From: an uncultured delta proteobacterium
Lineage (GTDB): Bacteria > Desulfobacterota > Binatia > UBA9968
Direction of reading: 5' to 3'
Assembly (NCBI GenBank): GCA_963745035.1
Contig: CAVUVW010000020.1
Coordinates: 64,001-128,000, forward strand
Length of the DNA stretch: 64,000 nucleotides
The notes under the pieces are model-generated. The model worked only from the letters and a program-made list of their open reading frames with translations, was not told the DNA's origin and did not search any database. Position numbers and translations under genes: made by a program. Positions 1,430-61,071 of this stretch are shown here, one piece after another. How positions within the stretch are numbered: the first letter of the stretch is position 1; every line of letters starts with the position of its first letter.

Positions 1430-1444
1430 GCAACAAACATGCCA
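1430..1444 (-). promoter_or_regulatory. sigma54 -24/-12 promoter for 893..1222
   Basis: TGGCATGTTTGTTGC on minus strand. Confidence 0.7.
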
Positions 1445-1614
1445 GCACACGATCTGCGCAATAGCTTCGAGCCCGCGCGAATGTCGGCATTCCGCTCTCG
1501 TATTCTGGTTCTGCCCGCCTCGGGTTGTCTCCAGCGTGGAACAGCCCGATGACAACCCGTCTTGGGTTTAAGACAGCCCCGAGCGGCGGTCAGCGCCGCC
1601 ACAGCGATCGTTTG

Positions 1615-1630
1615 CGGCATAGGCCTTGCT
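1615..1630 (+). promoter_or_regulatory. sigma54 promoter for sucAB
   Basis: CGGCATAGGCCTTGCT, ~60 nt before ATG 1688; divergent from the 1430 promoter. Confidence 0.7.
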
Positions 1631-1687
1631 CAAAATAATCCCAAAGCAGCGCGCAGTTCGCAGCTCGCTGCCCTCCCCTGCACCGCC

Positions 1688-4453
1688 ATGGACTCCCTGA
1701 CCAATCCCGAAAGCCTTCGCTACGTTGAAAAATTGTACGATGCCTATCGGAAAGATCCGGCATCCGTAGACCCGGCGTGGCAAGTTTATTTCGCTGACCT
1801 CGGGCGCGATCTCCCGGCAAGCGCCAATGGCCGCGCGCGCGTAAGCGGCGCCATCGCCAAAGACGGCGCAGGCGCGCCGGCGCCGGTGATCGCCTCGACC
1901 GTGCAAGACCAATTAAACGAGATGATCCGCGCCTTCCGCGTTTTCGGTCACCTTGCCGCGGACGTAGATCCGCTCGGCTTGCAGAAGACTTCGGTGCCAG
2001 CGCTCGATCCGATTGCCTACGGCTTTGGCGCCGAGCGCATGGAGCAGCTCTTTCCTTCTACGGGTCTTCCCTGGTCGGGGCCGCTTAAGCTGCGCGAGAT
2101 CGTCGCACGGCTGCGCCGCGCTTATTGCGGCCCGATCGGGGTCGAGCTCGCGCAGATCGAGGCGCGCGCGGAGCGCGTCTGGCTCGAGCAAAGAATCGAG
2201 GCCGAAGAAGGACGCATCGATCTCAGTCGGGAAGAGCGGCGAAAGCTCCTCGGCGATCTGATTCAGGCGGCGGCCTTTGACGAATTCATTCGCGGCCAGT
2301 TCGTCGGCGCCAAGAGTTTTTCCTTGGAAGGGGCGGAGAGCCTCATCGCCTTGGTTAAATTCGCTGTCGAAAAAAACGCCCGCGACGGCGGCCGTGAGAT
2401 CGTTCTCGCCATGGCCCATCGCGGCCGGCTCAACATGCTGGTCAACGTGGTCGGAAAAAAACACCGTGAAGTGTTTCGCGAATTCATCGACGCGGGGAAT
2501 GTCGAGGACGGCGGCGACGTAAAATATCATCTGGGCTACAGCGGCGATCTTGCGGCCGCGAACGGCCGCACCCTCCATCTCTCGCTGTGCTTCAACCCGA
2601 GCCATCTGGAATTCGTTGCCCCGGTCGCGCTCGGCCGGGTACGCGCCAAACAGGACCGCTCCGGCGATGCGCGGCGCGCGCGCGGCATGGCCTTGCTGAT
2701 TCACGGCGACGCCGCTTTCGCCGGCGAGGGCATTAGCCAGGAGACCCTCACTCTGAGCGGGCTGTCCGCCTACCGGATCGGCGGCGCGCTCCATGTGATT
2801 ATCAACAACCAAATCGGCTTTACCACTTCCCCCGGCGAGACCCGATCGAGCCGCTACGCCAGCGACGTCGCCAAGATGCTGCAGATCCCGATCTTTCACG
2901 TCAACGCCGACGACCCGGAAGCCGTCGTCCAGGCCGCGGCCATTGCGCTCGATTTCCGCCGGCGCTTCGGGCGCGACGTGGTCATCGATCTGATCGGCTA
3001 TCGCCGCCATGGGCACAACGAAGGCGACGAGCCCGCCTTCACCCAGCCGAAGCTTTATCAGGCGATTGCCCGCCATCCGCCGGTGCACGAAATTTATCTC
3101 AAGCGCCTGATCGGCGACGGTGCGGCGAGCGCGACGGACGCCGAGCGCATCGCGGCCGAATACCGCGCCGTGCTCGAGCGCGAGCTCGATGCGGCGCGCG
3201 CGGAAAATCACCGCGCCGCGCCGCAGGCGTACGGCGGCATTTGGGCCGGCTATGCCGGCGGGCGCCAACCCGCCGGCGAAGAGAACTTGCCCACGGCGGT
3301 GCCTGAGCGGGAGCTCAGCCAATTGCTCGAAGCGCAGAACCGATTTCCGGCGGATTTTCATCCCCATCCGAAAATCGTGCGCGCCGCCGCGCTGCGCCGC
3401 GATATGGCAGCGGGCAAACGCGCGCTCGATTGGGCCGCGGCCGAGGCGCTCGCGTTCGCCACTCTCGCGCGCGCCGGCACCCGCGTCCGGCTTACCGGCC
3501 AGGACACCGCCCGCGGAACTTTCAGCCAGCGCCACGCGGTGCTGCACGACGTCGAGACCGGCGCCGAATATGTTCCGCTCCAGCACGTTGCCGCAGGCCA
3601 GGCGCCGGTTGAAATCTACAACAGCCCGCTCTCCGAAGCCGGCGTGCTCGGATACGAATACGGCTACAGCCTCGATTATCCCGACGCGCTGGTTTTGTGG
3701 GAGGCCCAGTTCGGCGACTTCGTCAATGCCGCCCAGGTGATCATCGATCAATTCATCGCCAGCGCCGAGGAGAAGTGGCGCCGCTTGAGCGGCCTCGTGC
3801 TGCTGCTGCCGCACGGCTTCGAGGGCATGGGACCGGAGCATTCGAGCGCGCGCATGGAGCGCTTTCTCCAGCTCTGCGTCGGCGACAATCTGCAAGTCAT
3901 CTACCCGACCACGCCGGCGCAATATTTTCACGCGCTGCGCCGTCAGGTGCTGCGCCGCTGGCGCAAGCCGCTGGTCATCCTGACGCCGAAGAGTCTGCTG
4001 CGCCACCGCCAGGCGGTTTCCTCTCTTGCCGAACTGGCGCGCGGCGGATTTCAAACCGTGATCGGCGACGACGTCCCGGCGGCGCCGATCAAGCGCATCC
4101 TGTTGTGCGCCGGCAAGCTTTACTACGAACTGAAAAACCATCGCGCCGAGCGCGGCCGCGACGACGTGGCCATCGTCCGCATCGAGCAGCTTTATCCGAC
4201 CCCGATGGATGCTCTCGCCGCGTCCTGCAAAGAATATCCGAACGGCACGCCGGCGTTCTGGGTGCAGGAAGAGCCGGCCAACATGGGCGCCGCCTGTTTC
4301 TGGTCGCTGCACTTGGGCCGGTCGCTGTTTGATCGCCTGCCCTTCTCGGTGATCGCGCGGCCGGCCTCGGCCAGCCCCGCCACCGGCTCGGCGGCGCGCC
4401 ATCGCGAGCAGCAGGCGGAGCTTCTGGCCGCCGCCTTCGACGAGGCGCGCTGA
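1688..4453 (+). CDS. sucA: 2-oxoglutarate dehydrogenase E1 component
   Basis: FSLEG, MAHRGRLN, GDVKYHLG, NPSHLE, HGDAAF, WEAQFGDF, GPEHSSAR motifs; start moved to ATG 1688 (MDSLTNPES), downstream of the promoter. Confidence 0.95.
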   Translation: MDSLTNPESLRYVEKLYDAYRKDPASVDPAWQVYFADLGRDLPASANGRARVSGAIAKDGAGAPAPVIASTVQDQLNEMIRAFRVFGHLAADVDPLGLQKTSVPALDPIAYGFGAERMEQLFPSTGLPWSGPLKLREIVARLRRAYCGPIGVELAQIEARAERVWLEQRIEAEEGRIDLSREERRKLLGDLIQAAAFDEFIRGQFVGAKSFSLEGAESLIALVKFAVEKNARDGGREIVLAMAHRGRLNMLVNVVGKKHREVFREFIDAGNVEDGGDVKYHLGYSGDLAAANGRTLHLSLCFNPSHLEFVAPVALGRVRAKQDRSGDARRARGMALLIHGDAAFAGEGISQETLTLSGLSAYRIGGALHVIINNQIGFTTSPGETRSSRYASDVAKMLQIPIFHVNADDPEAVVQAAAIALDFRRRFGRDVVIDLIGYRRHGHNEGDEPAFTQPKLYQAIARHPPVHEIYLKRLIGDGAASATDAERIAAEYRAVLERELDAARAENHRAAPQAYGGIWAGYAGGRQPAGEENLPTAVPERELSQLLEAQNRFPADFHPHPKIVRAAALRRDMAAGKRALDWAAAEALAFATLARAGTRVRLTGQDTARGTFSQRHAVLHDVETGAEYVPLQHVAAGQAPVEIYNSPLSEAGVLGYEYGYSLDYPDALVLWEAQFGDFVNAAQVIIDQFIASAEEKWRRLSGLVLLLPHGFEGMGPEHSSARMERFLQLCVGDNLQVIYPTTPAQYFHALRRQVLRRWRKPLVILTPKSLLRHRQAVSSLAELARGGFQTVIGDDVPAAPIKRILLCAGKLYYELKNHRAERGRDDVAIVRIEQLYPTPMDALAASCKEYPNGTPAFWVQEEPANMGAACFWSLHLGRSLFDRLPFSVIARPASASPATGSAARHREQQAELLAAAFDEAR

Positions 4454-4506
4454 GGATCTCGGCGCGGCGCGTCAAGCGCGGCACAGCCATAAAGTGGAAA
4501 GCAGAA

Positions 4507-60133: not shown

Positions 60134-60136
60134 GGA

Positions 60137-60697
60137 TCAGGCCTTTTCGATTTTTTCGGTGAGATCGTGAATGCCGTCGATGCTCCGCGAGATGCTCTCG
60201 TAGGTTCTGTGGGGCAGCGCGCCGGACAGGCGCATGAGATCCACTTCGCCGCGAATCGCCTGCAAATGGTTGCCGATCTTGTGCGCGAGCCCACGGCCTT
60301 CGCACGTGAGGGCAGGCGTGTAGCGGCTGAGAACCACGGTGGTGCCATCCGCCGCCAAAAGCTGTTGCGCGGTTTCTTGCAGCTCGATGGCGCGTGCCGT
60401 TCCGCGTGGCAGAAAACCGTAACGGCACGCCATCGGCTGCGCCTCTTCGTAAAGCGCCCGGCAAAACGTCAGAAAGCTGTCTCGGTCATCCGCTTCTACG
60501 CGCGCCAGCCAAAGCTCCTTGTCGGCGCAAAACTCGGCGGCACTGAAACCGAGCAGCGCCGTGGCCGCGCCGTTGAGAACGCATCGCTTCCGATCCACGC
60601 TCCACAGCGCGGCCGGAGCGGTATCGAGCTCCAGAACTGCGGTGGCGGGCAGGGCCATCGCCGCGAGCCTGCTGTTCGGGTGCCCAACCGCGCGCAT
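60137..60697 (-). CDS. PAS-like domain plus HisKA-like helix, no HATPase
   Basis: N.AA..LLGFSAAE, W..RV..DDR PAS pattern; LAHKIGNHLQAIRG; ends 3 nt before the regulator ATG. Confidence 0.6.
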   Translation of the reverse strand: MRAVGHPNSRLAAMALPATAVLELDTAPAALWSVDRKRCVLNGAATALLGFSAAEFCADKELWLARVEADDRDSFLTFCRALYEEAQPMACRYGFLPRGTARAIELQETAQQLLAADGTTVVLSRYTPALTCEGRGLAHKIGNHLQAIRGEVDLMRLSGALPHRTYESISRSIDGIHDLTEKIEKA

Positions 60698-60854
60698 TGA
60701 ACCGATTCGCGGGCGCTAGGCCCCGCGCCTCCCTAACAGGCCTGGACATACAACCGTACGAATCACCCGGCCGAGCCTCCAAATGATCGCGATGATCGCG
60801 CGCCCTGGTGCGTGGAAACAGCTCTGGTTTGGCGGAGCGCACCGCGTCTAGCGT

Positions 60855-61043
60855 CTAGTGGAGCGCCAATTCGCTGATCTCGATGGTTTCGGTGTCGAGC
60901 CCAAGTTGCGACGCTTCGATGTAACAGCCATAGCAGACGATCATGTCGAGCAATCGTACACCGTCGCTGTCGCTCACCACCCTATAGGAGTCGCCGGCGC
61001 GATATTCGCCGCAACGATCGCAGGGAAAAACAAAAATACTCAT
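60855..61043 (-). CDS. 62-aa CxxC...CxxC zinc-ribbon-like protein
   Basis: MSIFVFPCDRCGE...MIVCYGCY; ATG just downstream of the sigma54 motif. Confidence 0.7.
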   Translation of the reverse strand: MSIFVFPCDRCGEYRAGDSYRVVSDSDGVRLLDMIVCYGCYIEASQLGLDTETIEISELALH

Positions 61044-61055
61044 GGCGCCTGGAGC

Positions 61056-61071
61056 CGCAAGGCGCATGCCA
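61056..61071 (-). promoter_or_regulatory. sigma54 promoter (near-leaderless) for zinc-ribbon gene, possibly reading into PAS/regulator genes
   Basis: TGGCATGCGCCTTGCG. Confidence 0.75.

Follow-up and report, generated by a model that had tools for sequence, protein, structure and literature searches.

A candidate sigma-54-read stress-protection island in the genome of an uncultured Binatia bacterium

To our knowledge, the organisation of the general stress response has been worked out mainly in the Proteobacteria, Firmicutes and Actinobacteria, and the solutions known to us all rely on sigma-70-family factors that are kept in check by anti-sigma factors or by proteolysis. A stretch of 64,000 nucleotides (nt) from the metagenome-derived genome of an uncultured Binatia bacterium (G000:C20:64001-128000, the whole of which is called the window here) raises the question of whether such genes can also be read by sigma-54 (RpoN) RNA polymerase, as it combines a dense series of -24/-12 promoter sites with genes for small stress proteins, ferritin-like proteins and DNA repair. 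An initial annotation, made from the letters of the window, had proposed that a general stress gene set is run here by RpoN together with local enhancer-binding proteins (EBPs) and PAS/GAF kinases. Our follow-up analysis leads us to regard the window as probably a lineage-specific stress-protection island, which would be read by sigma-54 RNA polymerase and receive at least two activator inputs. The genome comprises 7.43 Mb in 28 contigs at ~58% GC, and the window has a GC content of ~61.8% (mean over 16 bins), lower than the ~64% first estimated.

Promoter-like sites in the window and its relatives

The window contains 18 exact TGGCA-N6-TTGC sites, all of them within one base of the positions listed in the initial annotation. 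Dinucleotide-preserving shuffles (n = 100) gave a mean of 0.79 sites and a maximum of 3, none reaching 18, and the earlier chance estimate of about 0.5 sites was of the right order. Genome-wide, 140 such sites were counted; the window represents 0.86% of the DNA and carries 13% of them. It is the densest 64-kb stretch of the genome (18-19 exact sites), the runner-up, on contig C12, holding 8.

To guard against circularity, a position matrix was derived from 68 non-coding, gene-oriented exact sites outside the window, with the fixed positions softened. This matrix shows a T at position 6 and another T after TTGC. At a score of at least 14 it retrieves 170 non-coding and 95 coding sites in the whole genome, which corresponds to densities of 60.8 and 7.9 sites per Mb per strand, respectively. 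The initial annotation had called for such a scan, and its outcome is in line with the expectation: 20 sites in the window score at least 14 and all 20 are non-coding, compared with 1.3 predicted from the density elsewhere in the genome (Poisson p = 2e-17). Lowering the threshold to 12 gives 23 non-coding sites, and the addition of weaker GG-N10-GC variants brings the list to 25 candidates (Table 1), one fewer than the 26 motifs first reported. The sixth base is T in 14 of the 18 exact sites (TGGCAT rather than TGGCAC). This preference had been described as a local consensus; it extends to the entire genome, with T in 77 and C in 34 of the exact sites in non-coding DNA, and to the genus. Another site with a score of at least 14 stands before dnaX (C20:35408-37093) and may be a false positive.

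The sites are arranged as promoters would be. Among genome-wide sites scoring at least 14, 70 of those in tandem gaps point with the genes and 15 against them (p = 1e-9), while 68 others fall in divergent gaps and 16 in convergent gaps. The median distance from a site to the next start codon is 77 nt (138 sites genome-wide). For 23 of the 25 window candidates a start codon on the same strand follows 13-207 nt downstream, mostly with an AGGAG-type ribosome site, where the initial annotation had counted 24 of 26 motifs oriented upstream of genes. The six divergent pairs that it listed all exist (1430/1615, 8021/8332, 14616/14907, 26332/26498, 29666/30019 and 35099/35365), two of their members, 8332 and 30019, being weak by the matrix. 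The two remaining candidates, 12131(+) and 37460(+), are strong sites that face convergent genes without any plausible gene of their own, and they could be promoters of antisense or small RNAs; an Rfam scan of the whole window gave no match at gathering scores, including behind these two sites.

At three strong sites, 30669(+), 35099(-) and 61057(-), only 13-14 nt separate the promoter GC from the start codon. With a canonical transcription start ~12 nt past the GC, the predicted leader would measure 2-3 nt, and the corresponding mRNAs would be effectively leaderless. For 34314-35084, the gene behind 35099, an internal start is unlikely because its N-terminus, judged by eye, begins like that of the YflT-like protein 49520-50092. 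In relatives, the site stands 25-45 nt before the start of the 34314 homolog, compared with 14 nt in the window.

Conservation was followed in 20 relatives (G001-G020), namely 12 genomes of the same genus and 8 genomes of two other families. One of them, G005, is an unpublished genome; it supplies the closest ortholog (93%) of EBP1, an activator encoded in the window, and one locus each to the CsbD, GlsB and 34314 counts given below. The motif TGGCAT-N5-TTGC occurs 19-84 times per genome in all 12 genomes of the genus, as against 1-9 times for a reversed control, and 12-59 times in the second family of the order. In the third family it occurs 3-8 times, no more than the control; rpoN is present in this family (f3) without an excess of TGGCAT-type sites.

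The initial annotation had also asked whether the motif is conserved upstream of orthologs, and within the genus this is the case for the -24/-12 elements before CsbD and GlsB, which keep their positions. CsbD genes are found in 9 and Transgly_assoc (GlsB-type) genes in 8 of the 12 genus genomes, and neither is found in the 8 genomes searched from the two other families. A GG-N10-GC core matching at least 8 of 9 positions precedes 11 of 20 CsbD loci, mostly 35-55 nt before the domain, and 8 of 16 GlsB loci, 7 of them at 137-158 nt, whereas the opposite strand of the same regions gave 0/20 and 0/16 at a score of at least 10. Aligning the DNA upstream of GlsB (6 sequences, 5 genomes) leaves TGG.A, TGC and one following C as the sole non-coding columns without variation. 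The CsbD upstream alignment displays TGG/TGC-type conservation in four of five sequences, the fifth being misaligned, and GG-N10-GC stands at the same distance before CsbD in G003, G004, G011 and G005. Similarly, five of six 34314 homologs in the genus carry the core 25-45 nt before their start, with scores of 21.4, 20.3, 15.7, 8.6 and 6.3.

Enriched, non-coding, oriented towards genes at promoter-like distances from start codons and conserved in position among relatives, the window sites are very probably functional sigma-54 promoters.

Genes behind the sites

The genes considered here are the first ones behind the sites and later members of co-directional strings. According to Pfam, the small stress proteins comprise CsbD, Transgly_assoc (GlsB/YeaQ type), YtxH, a YflT-like protein and two BON proteins, and the metal and redox proteins are a hemerythrin, a ferritin-like protein of 399 amino acids (aa) and a Ferritin_2 protein. 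DNA repair is represented by a CBS pair followed by Ku and LigD, and by topoisomerase IB. The envelope and membrane products include SRPBCC, DUF2231, two BrkB/YihY proteins, a Phage_holin_3_6/DUF3618 pair and an M48 peptidase with lipoproteins, as well as a peptidoglycan-binding protein, an outer-membrane beta-barrel-like protein and a DUF748/AsmA-like protein. Among the enzymes are a metallophosphoesterase with a nucleotidyltransferase, a GT4 glycosyltransferase beside an MGH1-like hydrolase, and 2-oxoglutarate dehydrogenase. Eight small first genes have no Pfam or NCBIfam family match. The families named in the initial annotation were borne out by Pfam, apart from ElaB, as 29259-29615 matched no family. 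If closely spaced genes in the same direction are taken as units, the window sites could serve an estimated 40 or so genes.

CsbD, YtxH, YflT, Transgly_assoc, two BON proteins, hemerythrin, ferritin-like proteins, CBS, Ku and LigD are typical general-stress content. The SigB regulon of Bacillus, the RpoS regulon of E. coli and the EcfG regulon of Alphaproteobacteria contain CsbD, YtxH, YflT, GlsB-type, BON/OsmY-type, ferritin-like and Ku-LigD genes, and end joining is reportedly stress-inducible in Sinorhizobium, to judge by the title of PMC6379672. These regulons depend on a sigma-70-family factor controlled by partner switching or proteolysis, whereas the genes of the window stand behind -24/-12 promoters, which would need an AAA+ activator.

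Table 1. Candidate -24/-12 sites of the window with matrix scores and the genes behind them, and regulatory genes of the window
Feature	Position	Strand	Score	Genes behind, or remarks
-24/-12 site TGGCATGTTTGTTGC	1430..1444	-	19.1	207 nt before 893-1222 (109 aa, no family)
-24/-12 variant CGGCATAGGCCTTGC	1615..1629	+	18.9	58 nt before sucA-like 2-oxoglutarate dehydrogenase E1 (1688-4453)
E2-like gene after sucA-like E1	5009-6274			Named from N-terminal sequence only
-24/-12 site	8021..8035	-	21.2	7666-7950 (94 aa, paralog of 26559-26822), topoisomerase IB (6228-7436)
Weak variant TGGCTCCGCTTTTGC (TGGCTC)	8332..8346	+	11.2	138 nt before GT4 glycosyltransferase (8485-9585)
MGH1-like glycoside hydrolase	9591-10715			Convergent neighbour of the GT4 glycosyltransferase
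Orphan -24/-12 site	12131..12145	+	19.6	Faces convergent gene 12257-13144
-24/-12 site	13192..13206	-	21.7	Secreted peptidoglycan-binding protein (12257-13144)
-24/-12 site	14616..14630	-	17.7	BON-domain protein (14181-14594)
-24/-12 site	14907..14921	+	19.3	BON-domain protein (14980-15909)
-24/-12 site	22408..22422	+	22.6	Ferritin-like 399-aa protein (22474-23673)
Genes after 22474-23673				Ferritin_2 protein (23695-24588), BrkB/YihY membrane protein (24871-25776)
-24/-12 site	26332..26346	-	20.2	Hemerythrin (25839-26285)
-24/-12 site	26498..26512	+	24.1	26559-26822 (87 aa, no family), then DUF2231 membrane protein (27073-27555)
-24/-12 site	27591..27605	+	23.0	GlsB/YeaQ-type Transgly_assoc protein (27663-27914)
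-24/-12 variant TGGTATCTTTATTGC	29666..29680	-	17.6	29259-29615 (no family)
Genes after 29259-29615		-		28817-29239 (Phage_holin_3_6), 28410-28853 (DUF3618, weak match)
-24/-12 variant TGGTACGTCCGTTGC (TGGTAC...TTGCA)	30019..30033	+	7.4	40 nt before CsbD (30074-30268)
-24/-12 site	30669..30683	+	22.3	13 nt before metallophosphoesterase (30697-31479), then nucleotidyltransferase (31484-32275)
-24/-12 site	35099..35113	-	15.7	14 nt before 34314-35084 (256 aa, no family), then DUF748/AsmA-like (32416-33963)
-24/-12 site	35365..35379	+	17.9	35433-35657 (74 aa, no family)
PAS-PAS-HisKA-HATPase sensor kinase	35697..37241	-		Possible EBP1 partner; homolog beside EBP1 ortholog in G003
Orphan -24/-12 site	37460..37474	+	14.6	
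-24/-12 site	39409..39423	-	20.3	Lipoprotein (39115-39339), M48 peptidase (38416-39084), 37829-38419
-24/-12 site	40278..40292	-	20.4	Outer-membrane beta-barrel-like protein (39711-40241; Pfam match below cut-off)
EBP1	41911..43290	-		REC + sigma-54 AAA+ + HTH_8; Walker A, GSFTGA; candidate activator for part of the island
-24/-12 site	43687..43701	+	19.5	CBS pair (43730-44188), Ku (44372-45325), LigD (45441-47945)
Weak variant CGGTATATTTCTTGC	48122..48136	+	13.1	YtxH (48201-48422), SRPBCC protein (48546-49295)
Weak variant TGGCATGCGTTTAGC	49471..49485	+	12.5	YflT-like protein (49520-50092)
2280-aa hybrid sensor kinase	50252-57094	-		N-terminal receiver, GAF, about seven PAS, HisKA-HATPase, further receivers (three receiver stretches)
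Histidine kinase	57081-58079	-		Downstream of variant site 58458
Variant GGGCATATGTTTTGC	58458..58472	-	13.8	378 nt before histidine kinase (57081-58079), then 2280-aa hybrid kinase (50252-57094)
EBP2	58655-60133	-		REC-AAA+-HTH; GSYGGA where GAFTGA expected
-24/-12 site	61057..61071	-	16.0	60855-61043 (62 aa), PAS protein (60137-60697, weak match), EBP2 (58655-60133)

Sigma-54 sites are not confined to the window. About 150 further non-coding sites scoring at least 14 lie outside it, and a Pfam scan of the first genes behind 106 of these outside sites found BON (4), Usp (3), CBS (3), GGDEF (3), receiver domains (3), SRPBCC (2) and peptidoglycan-binding proteins (2) as the commonest families, together with solute-binding proteins and one ammonium transporter, a classical sigma-54 target. 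Paralogs of the BON, CBS, SRPBCC, Usp and YflT-like genes elsewhere in the genome also stand behind sigma-54 sites. In this genome, sigma-54 is not reserved for stress genes, and stress-type genes recur as targets within a broad regulon. In the second-densest cluster of the genome (G000:C12:36880-62134, 8 exact sites in 64 kb), the first genes behind the sites include CBS, SRPBCC, NusG-like, FAD oxidoreductase and IS-type transposase genes.

The segment 26498-26822(+) is duplicated, promoter included, at G000:C17:27850-28159. Both copies share the 15-nt promoter core TGGCATTTCGATTGC, and their proteins agree at 86% identity; the one on C17 continues into a longer frame (291 aa), and blastp clustering ties it to 26559 and to CBS-domain proteins.

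The ferritin-like protein 22474-23673 is unusually conserved, with 70-86% identity across records labelled Binatia, Myxococcota, Nitrospirota, Acidobacteriota, Methylomirabilota and others; the closest named records (84-86%) come from bins labelled Candidatus Binatia or older Deltaproteobacteria. It matches no Pfam or NCBIfam family, only FA_desaturase_2 below threshold, and falls in ferritin-like/DUF455 clusters of the ESM Atlas; it is probably of the di-iron type. A sigma-54 site precedes its ortholog at 10 of 13 loci with at least 80% identity and upstream sequence present; the Sorangium, Nitrospiraceae and Pyrinomonadaceae loci lack it. The dense island itself was looked for at 80 loci around this ortholog, where no synteny was found: the lone promoter recurs in the closest group, in a neighbourhood that is not promoter-rich.

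A block at ~15.9-22.2 kb (CheR-PAS, CheB, glyoxalase) has no site. Within it, three paralogs of ~100 aa without a family match, 17098-17418(-), 17519-17845(-) and 21590-21880(-), share a W-P-P-x-W-T motif and flank the CheR-PAS/CheB-type methylation module (17921-21442).

Near-identical DNA is present in rhizosphere, soil and winery metagenomes. The RNA data consist of assembled contigs at least 95% alike, from four libraries of three studies, and hold no starts, strands or levels. Such contigs cover the hemerythrin gene, 26549-26784, DUF2231, the 3' part of GlsB, 28305-29066, 29172-29578, CsbD, 30823-31081 and 34276-35040. They lend weak support to our reading of the island, as their presence does not prove transcription, and the deep coverage of CsbD is probably a sum over homologous genes of other organisms. 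In the four runs, the promoter-bearing gaps 26793-27123 and 35068-35398 have no contig, from which no conclusion is drawn. Contigs of two studies both start at 26549, 36 nt past the GC of the 26498 site; this was treated as uninformative because contig ends are set by assembly.

Sigma factors, activators and upstream elements

The genome contains candidate genes for the machinery that such promoters would require. A single copy of rpoN lies directly after lptB (G000:C14:356500-358700), with a DNA-binding domain at 212 bits and an RpoN box. The initial annotation had asked for rpoN and for sigB, ecfG and rpoS: rpoN is present, although its frame is interrupted, and at curated cut-offs the genome has no RpoS (best 244 bits against 378.7) and no SigB/F/G (114 against 234), a search that did not extend to EcfG, PhyR and NepR.

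A strong sigma-54 AAA+ domain is found in 27 genes, two of them in the window. EBP1 is built of Response_reg (5-114), Sigma54_activat (144-310), AAA_lid_14 and HTH_8 (409-447). Neither EBP1 nor EBP2 reaches a named NCBIfam equivalog, the best scores being AtoC (432 against a cut-off of 714) and NtrC (387 against 559). EBP1 orthologs occur in G005 (93%) and, at ~60%, in G002, G003, G004, G006, G008 and G011.

In G004, 15 sites scoring at least 13 lie within ~46 kb around the EBP1 ortholog, and an 80-kb stretch holds 6 TGGCAT-N5-TTGC sites, i.e., 75 per Mb compared with ~10 per Mb genome-wide (67 in 6.5 Mb). This island contains homologs of CsbD (70%), the beta-barrel protein (53%), hemerythrin (37%), the holin-family protein (39%), 34314 (46%, promoter adjacent), DUF748 (51%), the glycosyltransferase (47%, promoter adjacent), 26559 (65%), topoisomerase IB (60%) and YflT (57%). 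Its glycosyltransferase gene lies directly behind a site scoring 21.0, where the window counterpart, 8332, scores 11.2. In G003, 8 sites scoring at least 13 lie in 80 kb around the EBP1 ortholog.

Upstream of the promoters, no single enhancer common to all was recovered: in 7-mer counts and 4+4 dyad scans, no dyad occurred in at least 8 of the 25 upstream regions, and the best dyads were discounted as divergent pairs share one region and are counted twice. A comparison of hexamers in 19 unique upstream regions (4265 nt) with other intergenic DNA ranked TGGGAC first and GGGACA second of 1532, with 10 occurrences each and 8.5- and 7.6-fold enrichment (p = 5e-7 and 1e-6). At the other sigma-54 sites of the genome the same words are not enriched (1.7- and 1.0-fold). 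The element, often in the form TTGGGACA, lies 40-204 nt upstream of 12 of the 25 candidates, and it also precedes the EBP1 gene. Non-coding copies of TTGGGACA number 37 in the genome, 5 of them in the window, and 4 of these 5 are upstream of sigma-54 sites. In the G004 island, GGGACA occurs at 8 of 15 promoters, including the one directly before the EBP1 ortholog.

A second type of element, the palindrome CTGTC-N10-GACAG (at most one mismatch), is found at 5 of 23 window promoters and at 8 of 236 others, and in 0.56% of background regions. Palindromes of this type stand at 1430/1615, 8021 and 35099/35365, and also at sigma-54 sites elsewhere in the genome. TGT-N12-ACA was rejected as an island element, as it occurs at 5 of 20 window promoters, at 11 of 150 others and in 1.9% of the background. 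Because no element is common to all promoters and at least two enhancer types occur, we conclude that at least two activators would act on the island.

The sigma-70 family counts 16 genes, namely RpoD, an unclassified RpoD-like factor of 408 aa, RpoH and 13 ECF-sized factors. The RpoD-like factor (G000:C13:1926397-1927620) stays below every NCBIfam cut-off (best RpoD, 366 against 555) and could be a group-2 sigma of the stationary-phase type, hence a rival carrier of the general stress response. A cascade from sigma-54 to other regulators was sought and not found, only rpoH and 3 of the 27 activator genes having an upstream site. The rpoH gene of E. coli also has a sigma-54 promoter. Here, a site (TGGCACTTCTCTTGC, score 20.8) lies ~1 kb upstream of the sigma-70 region-2 match of rpoH (G000:C21:193300-195500) with a small open reading frame between them; the gene matches NCBIfam sigma-32 at 292 bits (cut-off 241), and a sigma-54-to-sigma-32 link is possible.

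Readings of the island and known sigma-54 systems

The mechanism that we infer, in which promoter firing, activator-promoter pairing, operon extents and the inducing signal are conjectural, builds on the observed promoter statistics, orientation, conservation, gene families and presence of rpoN and activators. Some 20-25 transcription units, roughly 40 genes, would be read by sigma-54 RNA polymerase from TGGCAT-N5-TTGC promoters and would stay silent until ATP-hydrolysing enhancer-binding activators remodel the closed complex. One class of promoters, with TGGGAC/GGGACA (TTGGGACA-like) elements 40-200 nt upstream, would probably be served by EBP1, itself phosphorylated by a PAS kinase. A second class would be addressed through the CTGTC-N10-GACAG-type palindromes. 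The products would shield soil cells that are not growing, are dry or are under osmotic stress, and the sugar enzymes may handle compatible solutes.

Several observations weigh against this reading. The genome is a metagenome bin with a completeness of 92.6% and a contamination of 5.8%, and its genes were called with a crude, home-made codon-usage caller that over-calls small reading frames (8894 calls for 7.4 Mb). In the assembly, rpoN has a frameshift that puts the N-terminal activator-interacting domain in another frame than the core-binding and DNA-binding parts, leaving an open frame of 422 aa compared with 484-538 aa in 18 of the 20 relatives, those with a match. As the frames of rpoD (C5:235112-235826) and of one activator gene (C14:37424-37926) show similar splits, the break is probably an indel error of the assembly, although it may be that of a true pseudogene. 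In EBP2, GSYGGA replaces GAFTGA. The Thr of this motif contacts sigma-54, and EBP2 may not activate sigma-54 promoters because a Gly takes its place; it may act on sigma-70 promoters or as a modulator. The GGGAC element is missing from 13 of the 25 candidates, and that EBP1 reads the GGGACA word is suggested by their co-location in two genomes only, this one and G004. In relatives, the promoter before 26559 is not maintained (5 homologs in 4 genomes; best score 10.6), and only the paralog on contig C17 has kept it. The first genes behind the 106 outside sites belong to 129 families. The wiring of the stress families is also partial: a site scoring at least 14 precedes 5 of 14 BON loci (a sixth BON gene, C17:360402-362081, is also listed among the genes behind a site) and one of the two GlsB loci, while the three CsbD loci divide into one with a variant site, one with a weak site and one with no site. 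Finally, the other sigma-70-family factors could offer alternative routes to a stress response.

The proposal of the initial annotation stands in part. The promoters, the stress-type genes, rpoN, EBP1, the PAS/GAF kinases and the lack of RpoS and SigB agree with a stress gene set run by RpoN and local activators. Its unity as one regulon does not follow from the data, given the lack of a common enhancer, the broad regulon, the partly wired families, the GSYGGA of EBP2, the other sigma factors and the broken rpoN frame. That the island is a whole general stress response under one regulator is possible.

In its full form, this proposal makes sigma-54 the general stress and dormancy sigma of the lineage, with the local kinases and EBP1 as a single hub through which numerous unrelated stresses, or growth arrest, would switch on the entire island together with related genes elsewhere, in the place of RpoS, SigB or EcfG. 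We consider this doubtful, although it is the strongest of the alternatives. The gene content resembles the classical regulons, RpoS and SigB were not found, the BON, CBS, SRPBCC, Usp and YflT-like paralogs elsewhere have sigma-54 sites, the island surrounds the EBP1 ortholog in both G004 and G003, and among the 20 relatives searched CsbD and GlsB are found only in the genus with the large TGGCAT set. However, a single hub fits poorly with at least two enhancer classes, with half of the promoters having neither in clear form, and with the many stress-family copies that lack the motif. Furthermore, the second RpoD-like sigma, RpoH or the 13 ECF-sized sigmas could carry a general response, and with 3 of 27 activator genes behind sigma-54 sites no cascade is evident.

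A theme rather than a regulon could also group the genes: independently regulated sigma-54 operons would then share a role in envelope and osmotic homeostasis, with sigma-54 as a controller of the cell exterior and not of a general stress response. Francke et al. 2011 (PMC3162934) argue for sigma-54 as a central controller of the bacterial exterior. The envelope-associated products (BON, GlsB, YtxH, beta-barrel-like, peptidoglycan-binding, lipoproteins, M48, DUF748/AsmA-like, BrkB, GT4 and UDP-glucose dehydrogenase), the several enhancer types and the 27 activators also speak for such a theme. We nevertheless find it improbable, as the island also contains genes for cytoplasmic protection and repair (Ku-LigD, topoisomerase IB, hemerythrin, ferritin-like, CBS, CsbD and sucAB), one pair of hexamers is specific to its promoters, and it travels with one activator ortholog in relatives. 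That the cluster is inactive, consisting of relic sites beside an rpoN pseudogene or of a motif bound by another protein, draws on the interrupted rpoN frame and is very unlikely in view of the exact GG-N10-GC geometry, the asymmetry, orientation bias and start-codon distance of sigma-54 promoters, the motif being kept at orthologous positions in relatives with an intact rpoN frame, the similar frame breaks in other genes of the assembly and the occurrence of the gene sequences in RNA-library contigs.

Set beside these alternatives, a lineage-specific protection island with several activator inputs is the reading we favour, and it has parallels among known sigma-54 systems. The sigma-54 EBP Nla28 of Myxococcus xanthus controls a starvation regulon through an 8-bp half-site, CT(C/G)CG(C/G)AG (PMC9765219). 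Like the system proposed here, it combines a response-regulator-type activator, many sigma-54 promoters, a starvation or dormancy programme and short multi-copy half-sites upstream, in an organism with many activators and a large sigma-54 regulon (PMC9765219). The differences are that the enhancer word here is TTGGGACA, that the main text of that report, taken apart from its supplementary target tables, describes the Nla28 targets as developmental, metabolic or defence genes and not as CsbD/GlsB/YtxH/BON-type genes, and that many Nla28 promoters are intragenic whereas 20 of 20 strong sites are non-coding here (PMC9765219). In addition, Nla28 has been tested at the bench and the present island is known from its sequence (PMC9765219).

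In the sigma-54 regulome of Desulfovibrio vulgaris Hildenborough, the regulon of DVU3305 is labelled 'general stress response, transmembrane transport' (PMC4641369). Many two-component activators with few operons each, under labels such as envelope, nitrite, phage shock and general stress, are a likeness to the present genome, and the activator DVU3220 shares the GSFTGA variant of EBP1 (PMC4641369). In D. vulgaris, orphan sigma-54 promoters give rise to non-coding RNAs, and 12131(+) and 37460(+) may be parallel cases (PMC4641369). However, its stress-labelled regulons contain 1-2 operons each, 5 listed operons in total, compared with 20-25 promoters in 60 kb here, and the main text of the report, supplements aside, contains no mention of CsbD, BON or YtxH (PMC4641369).

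The RpoN regulon of Geobacter sulfurreducens, with the consensus TTGGCACGGTTTTTGCT, is that of a broad regulator that includes central metabolism, which the sucA site of the window would fit (PMC2725144). As far as the main text goes, stress and chaperone genes of Geobacter changed on RpoN over-expression without having RpoN promoter elements, whereas stress-type genes are the main local targets here; the preferred -24 element, TGGCAT, also differs from the Geobacter consensus (PMC2725144). In the literature searched on sigma-54, which covered neither the supplementary target tables of PMC4641369 and PMC9765219 nor those of PMC2725144, no report links such promoters to a CsbD/BON/YtxH-type regulon and none deals with sigma-54 in Binatia, so that the earlier statement that no description is known holds. 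Sigma-54/EBP regulons are themselves known; what appears new is one with general-stress gene content.

The boldest form of the idea is that sigma-54 took over the role of general stress and dormancy sigma, that EBP1 on TTGGGACA-type enhancers and a second class of activators turn on ~40 genes from zero-leak promoters, in part as leaderless mRNAs, and that the genus acquired the CsbD/GlsB/YtxH kit along with this wiring when it arose. We regard this as tentative and rather unlikely; if true, the general stress response would have a fourth solution, different in mechanism from RpoS, SigB and EcfG. Should our reading of the island be wrong, the window would still offer a very clean natural training set of TGGCAT-preferring sigma-54 promoters. 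Should it be right, the lineage would possess a protection regulon without basal leak, which would require ATP-hydrolysing activators and in which phosphorelay signals would be integrated promoter by promoter. For abundant uncultured soil lineages, this gives a concrete regulatory hypothesis with its promoters, a candidate activator and a candidate enhancer word, and the promoter motif may serve as a readout of the stress or dormancy state in soil metatranscriptomes.

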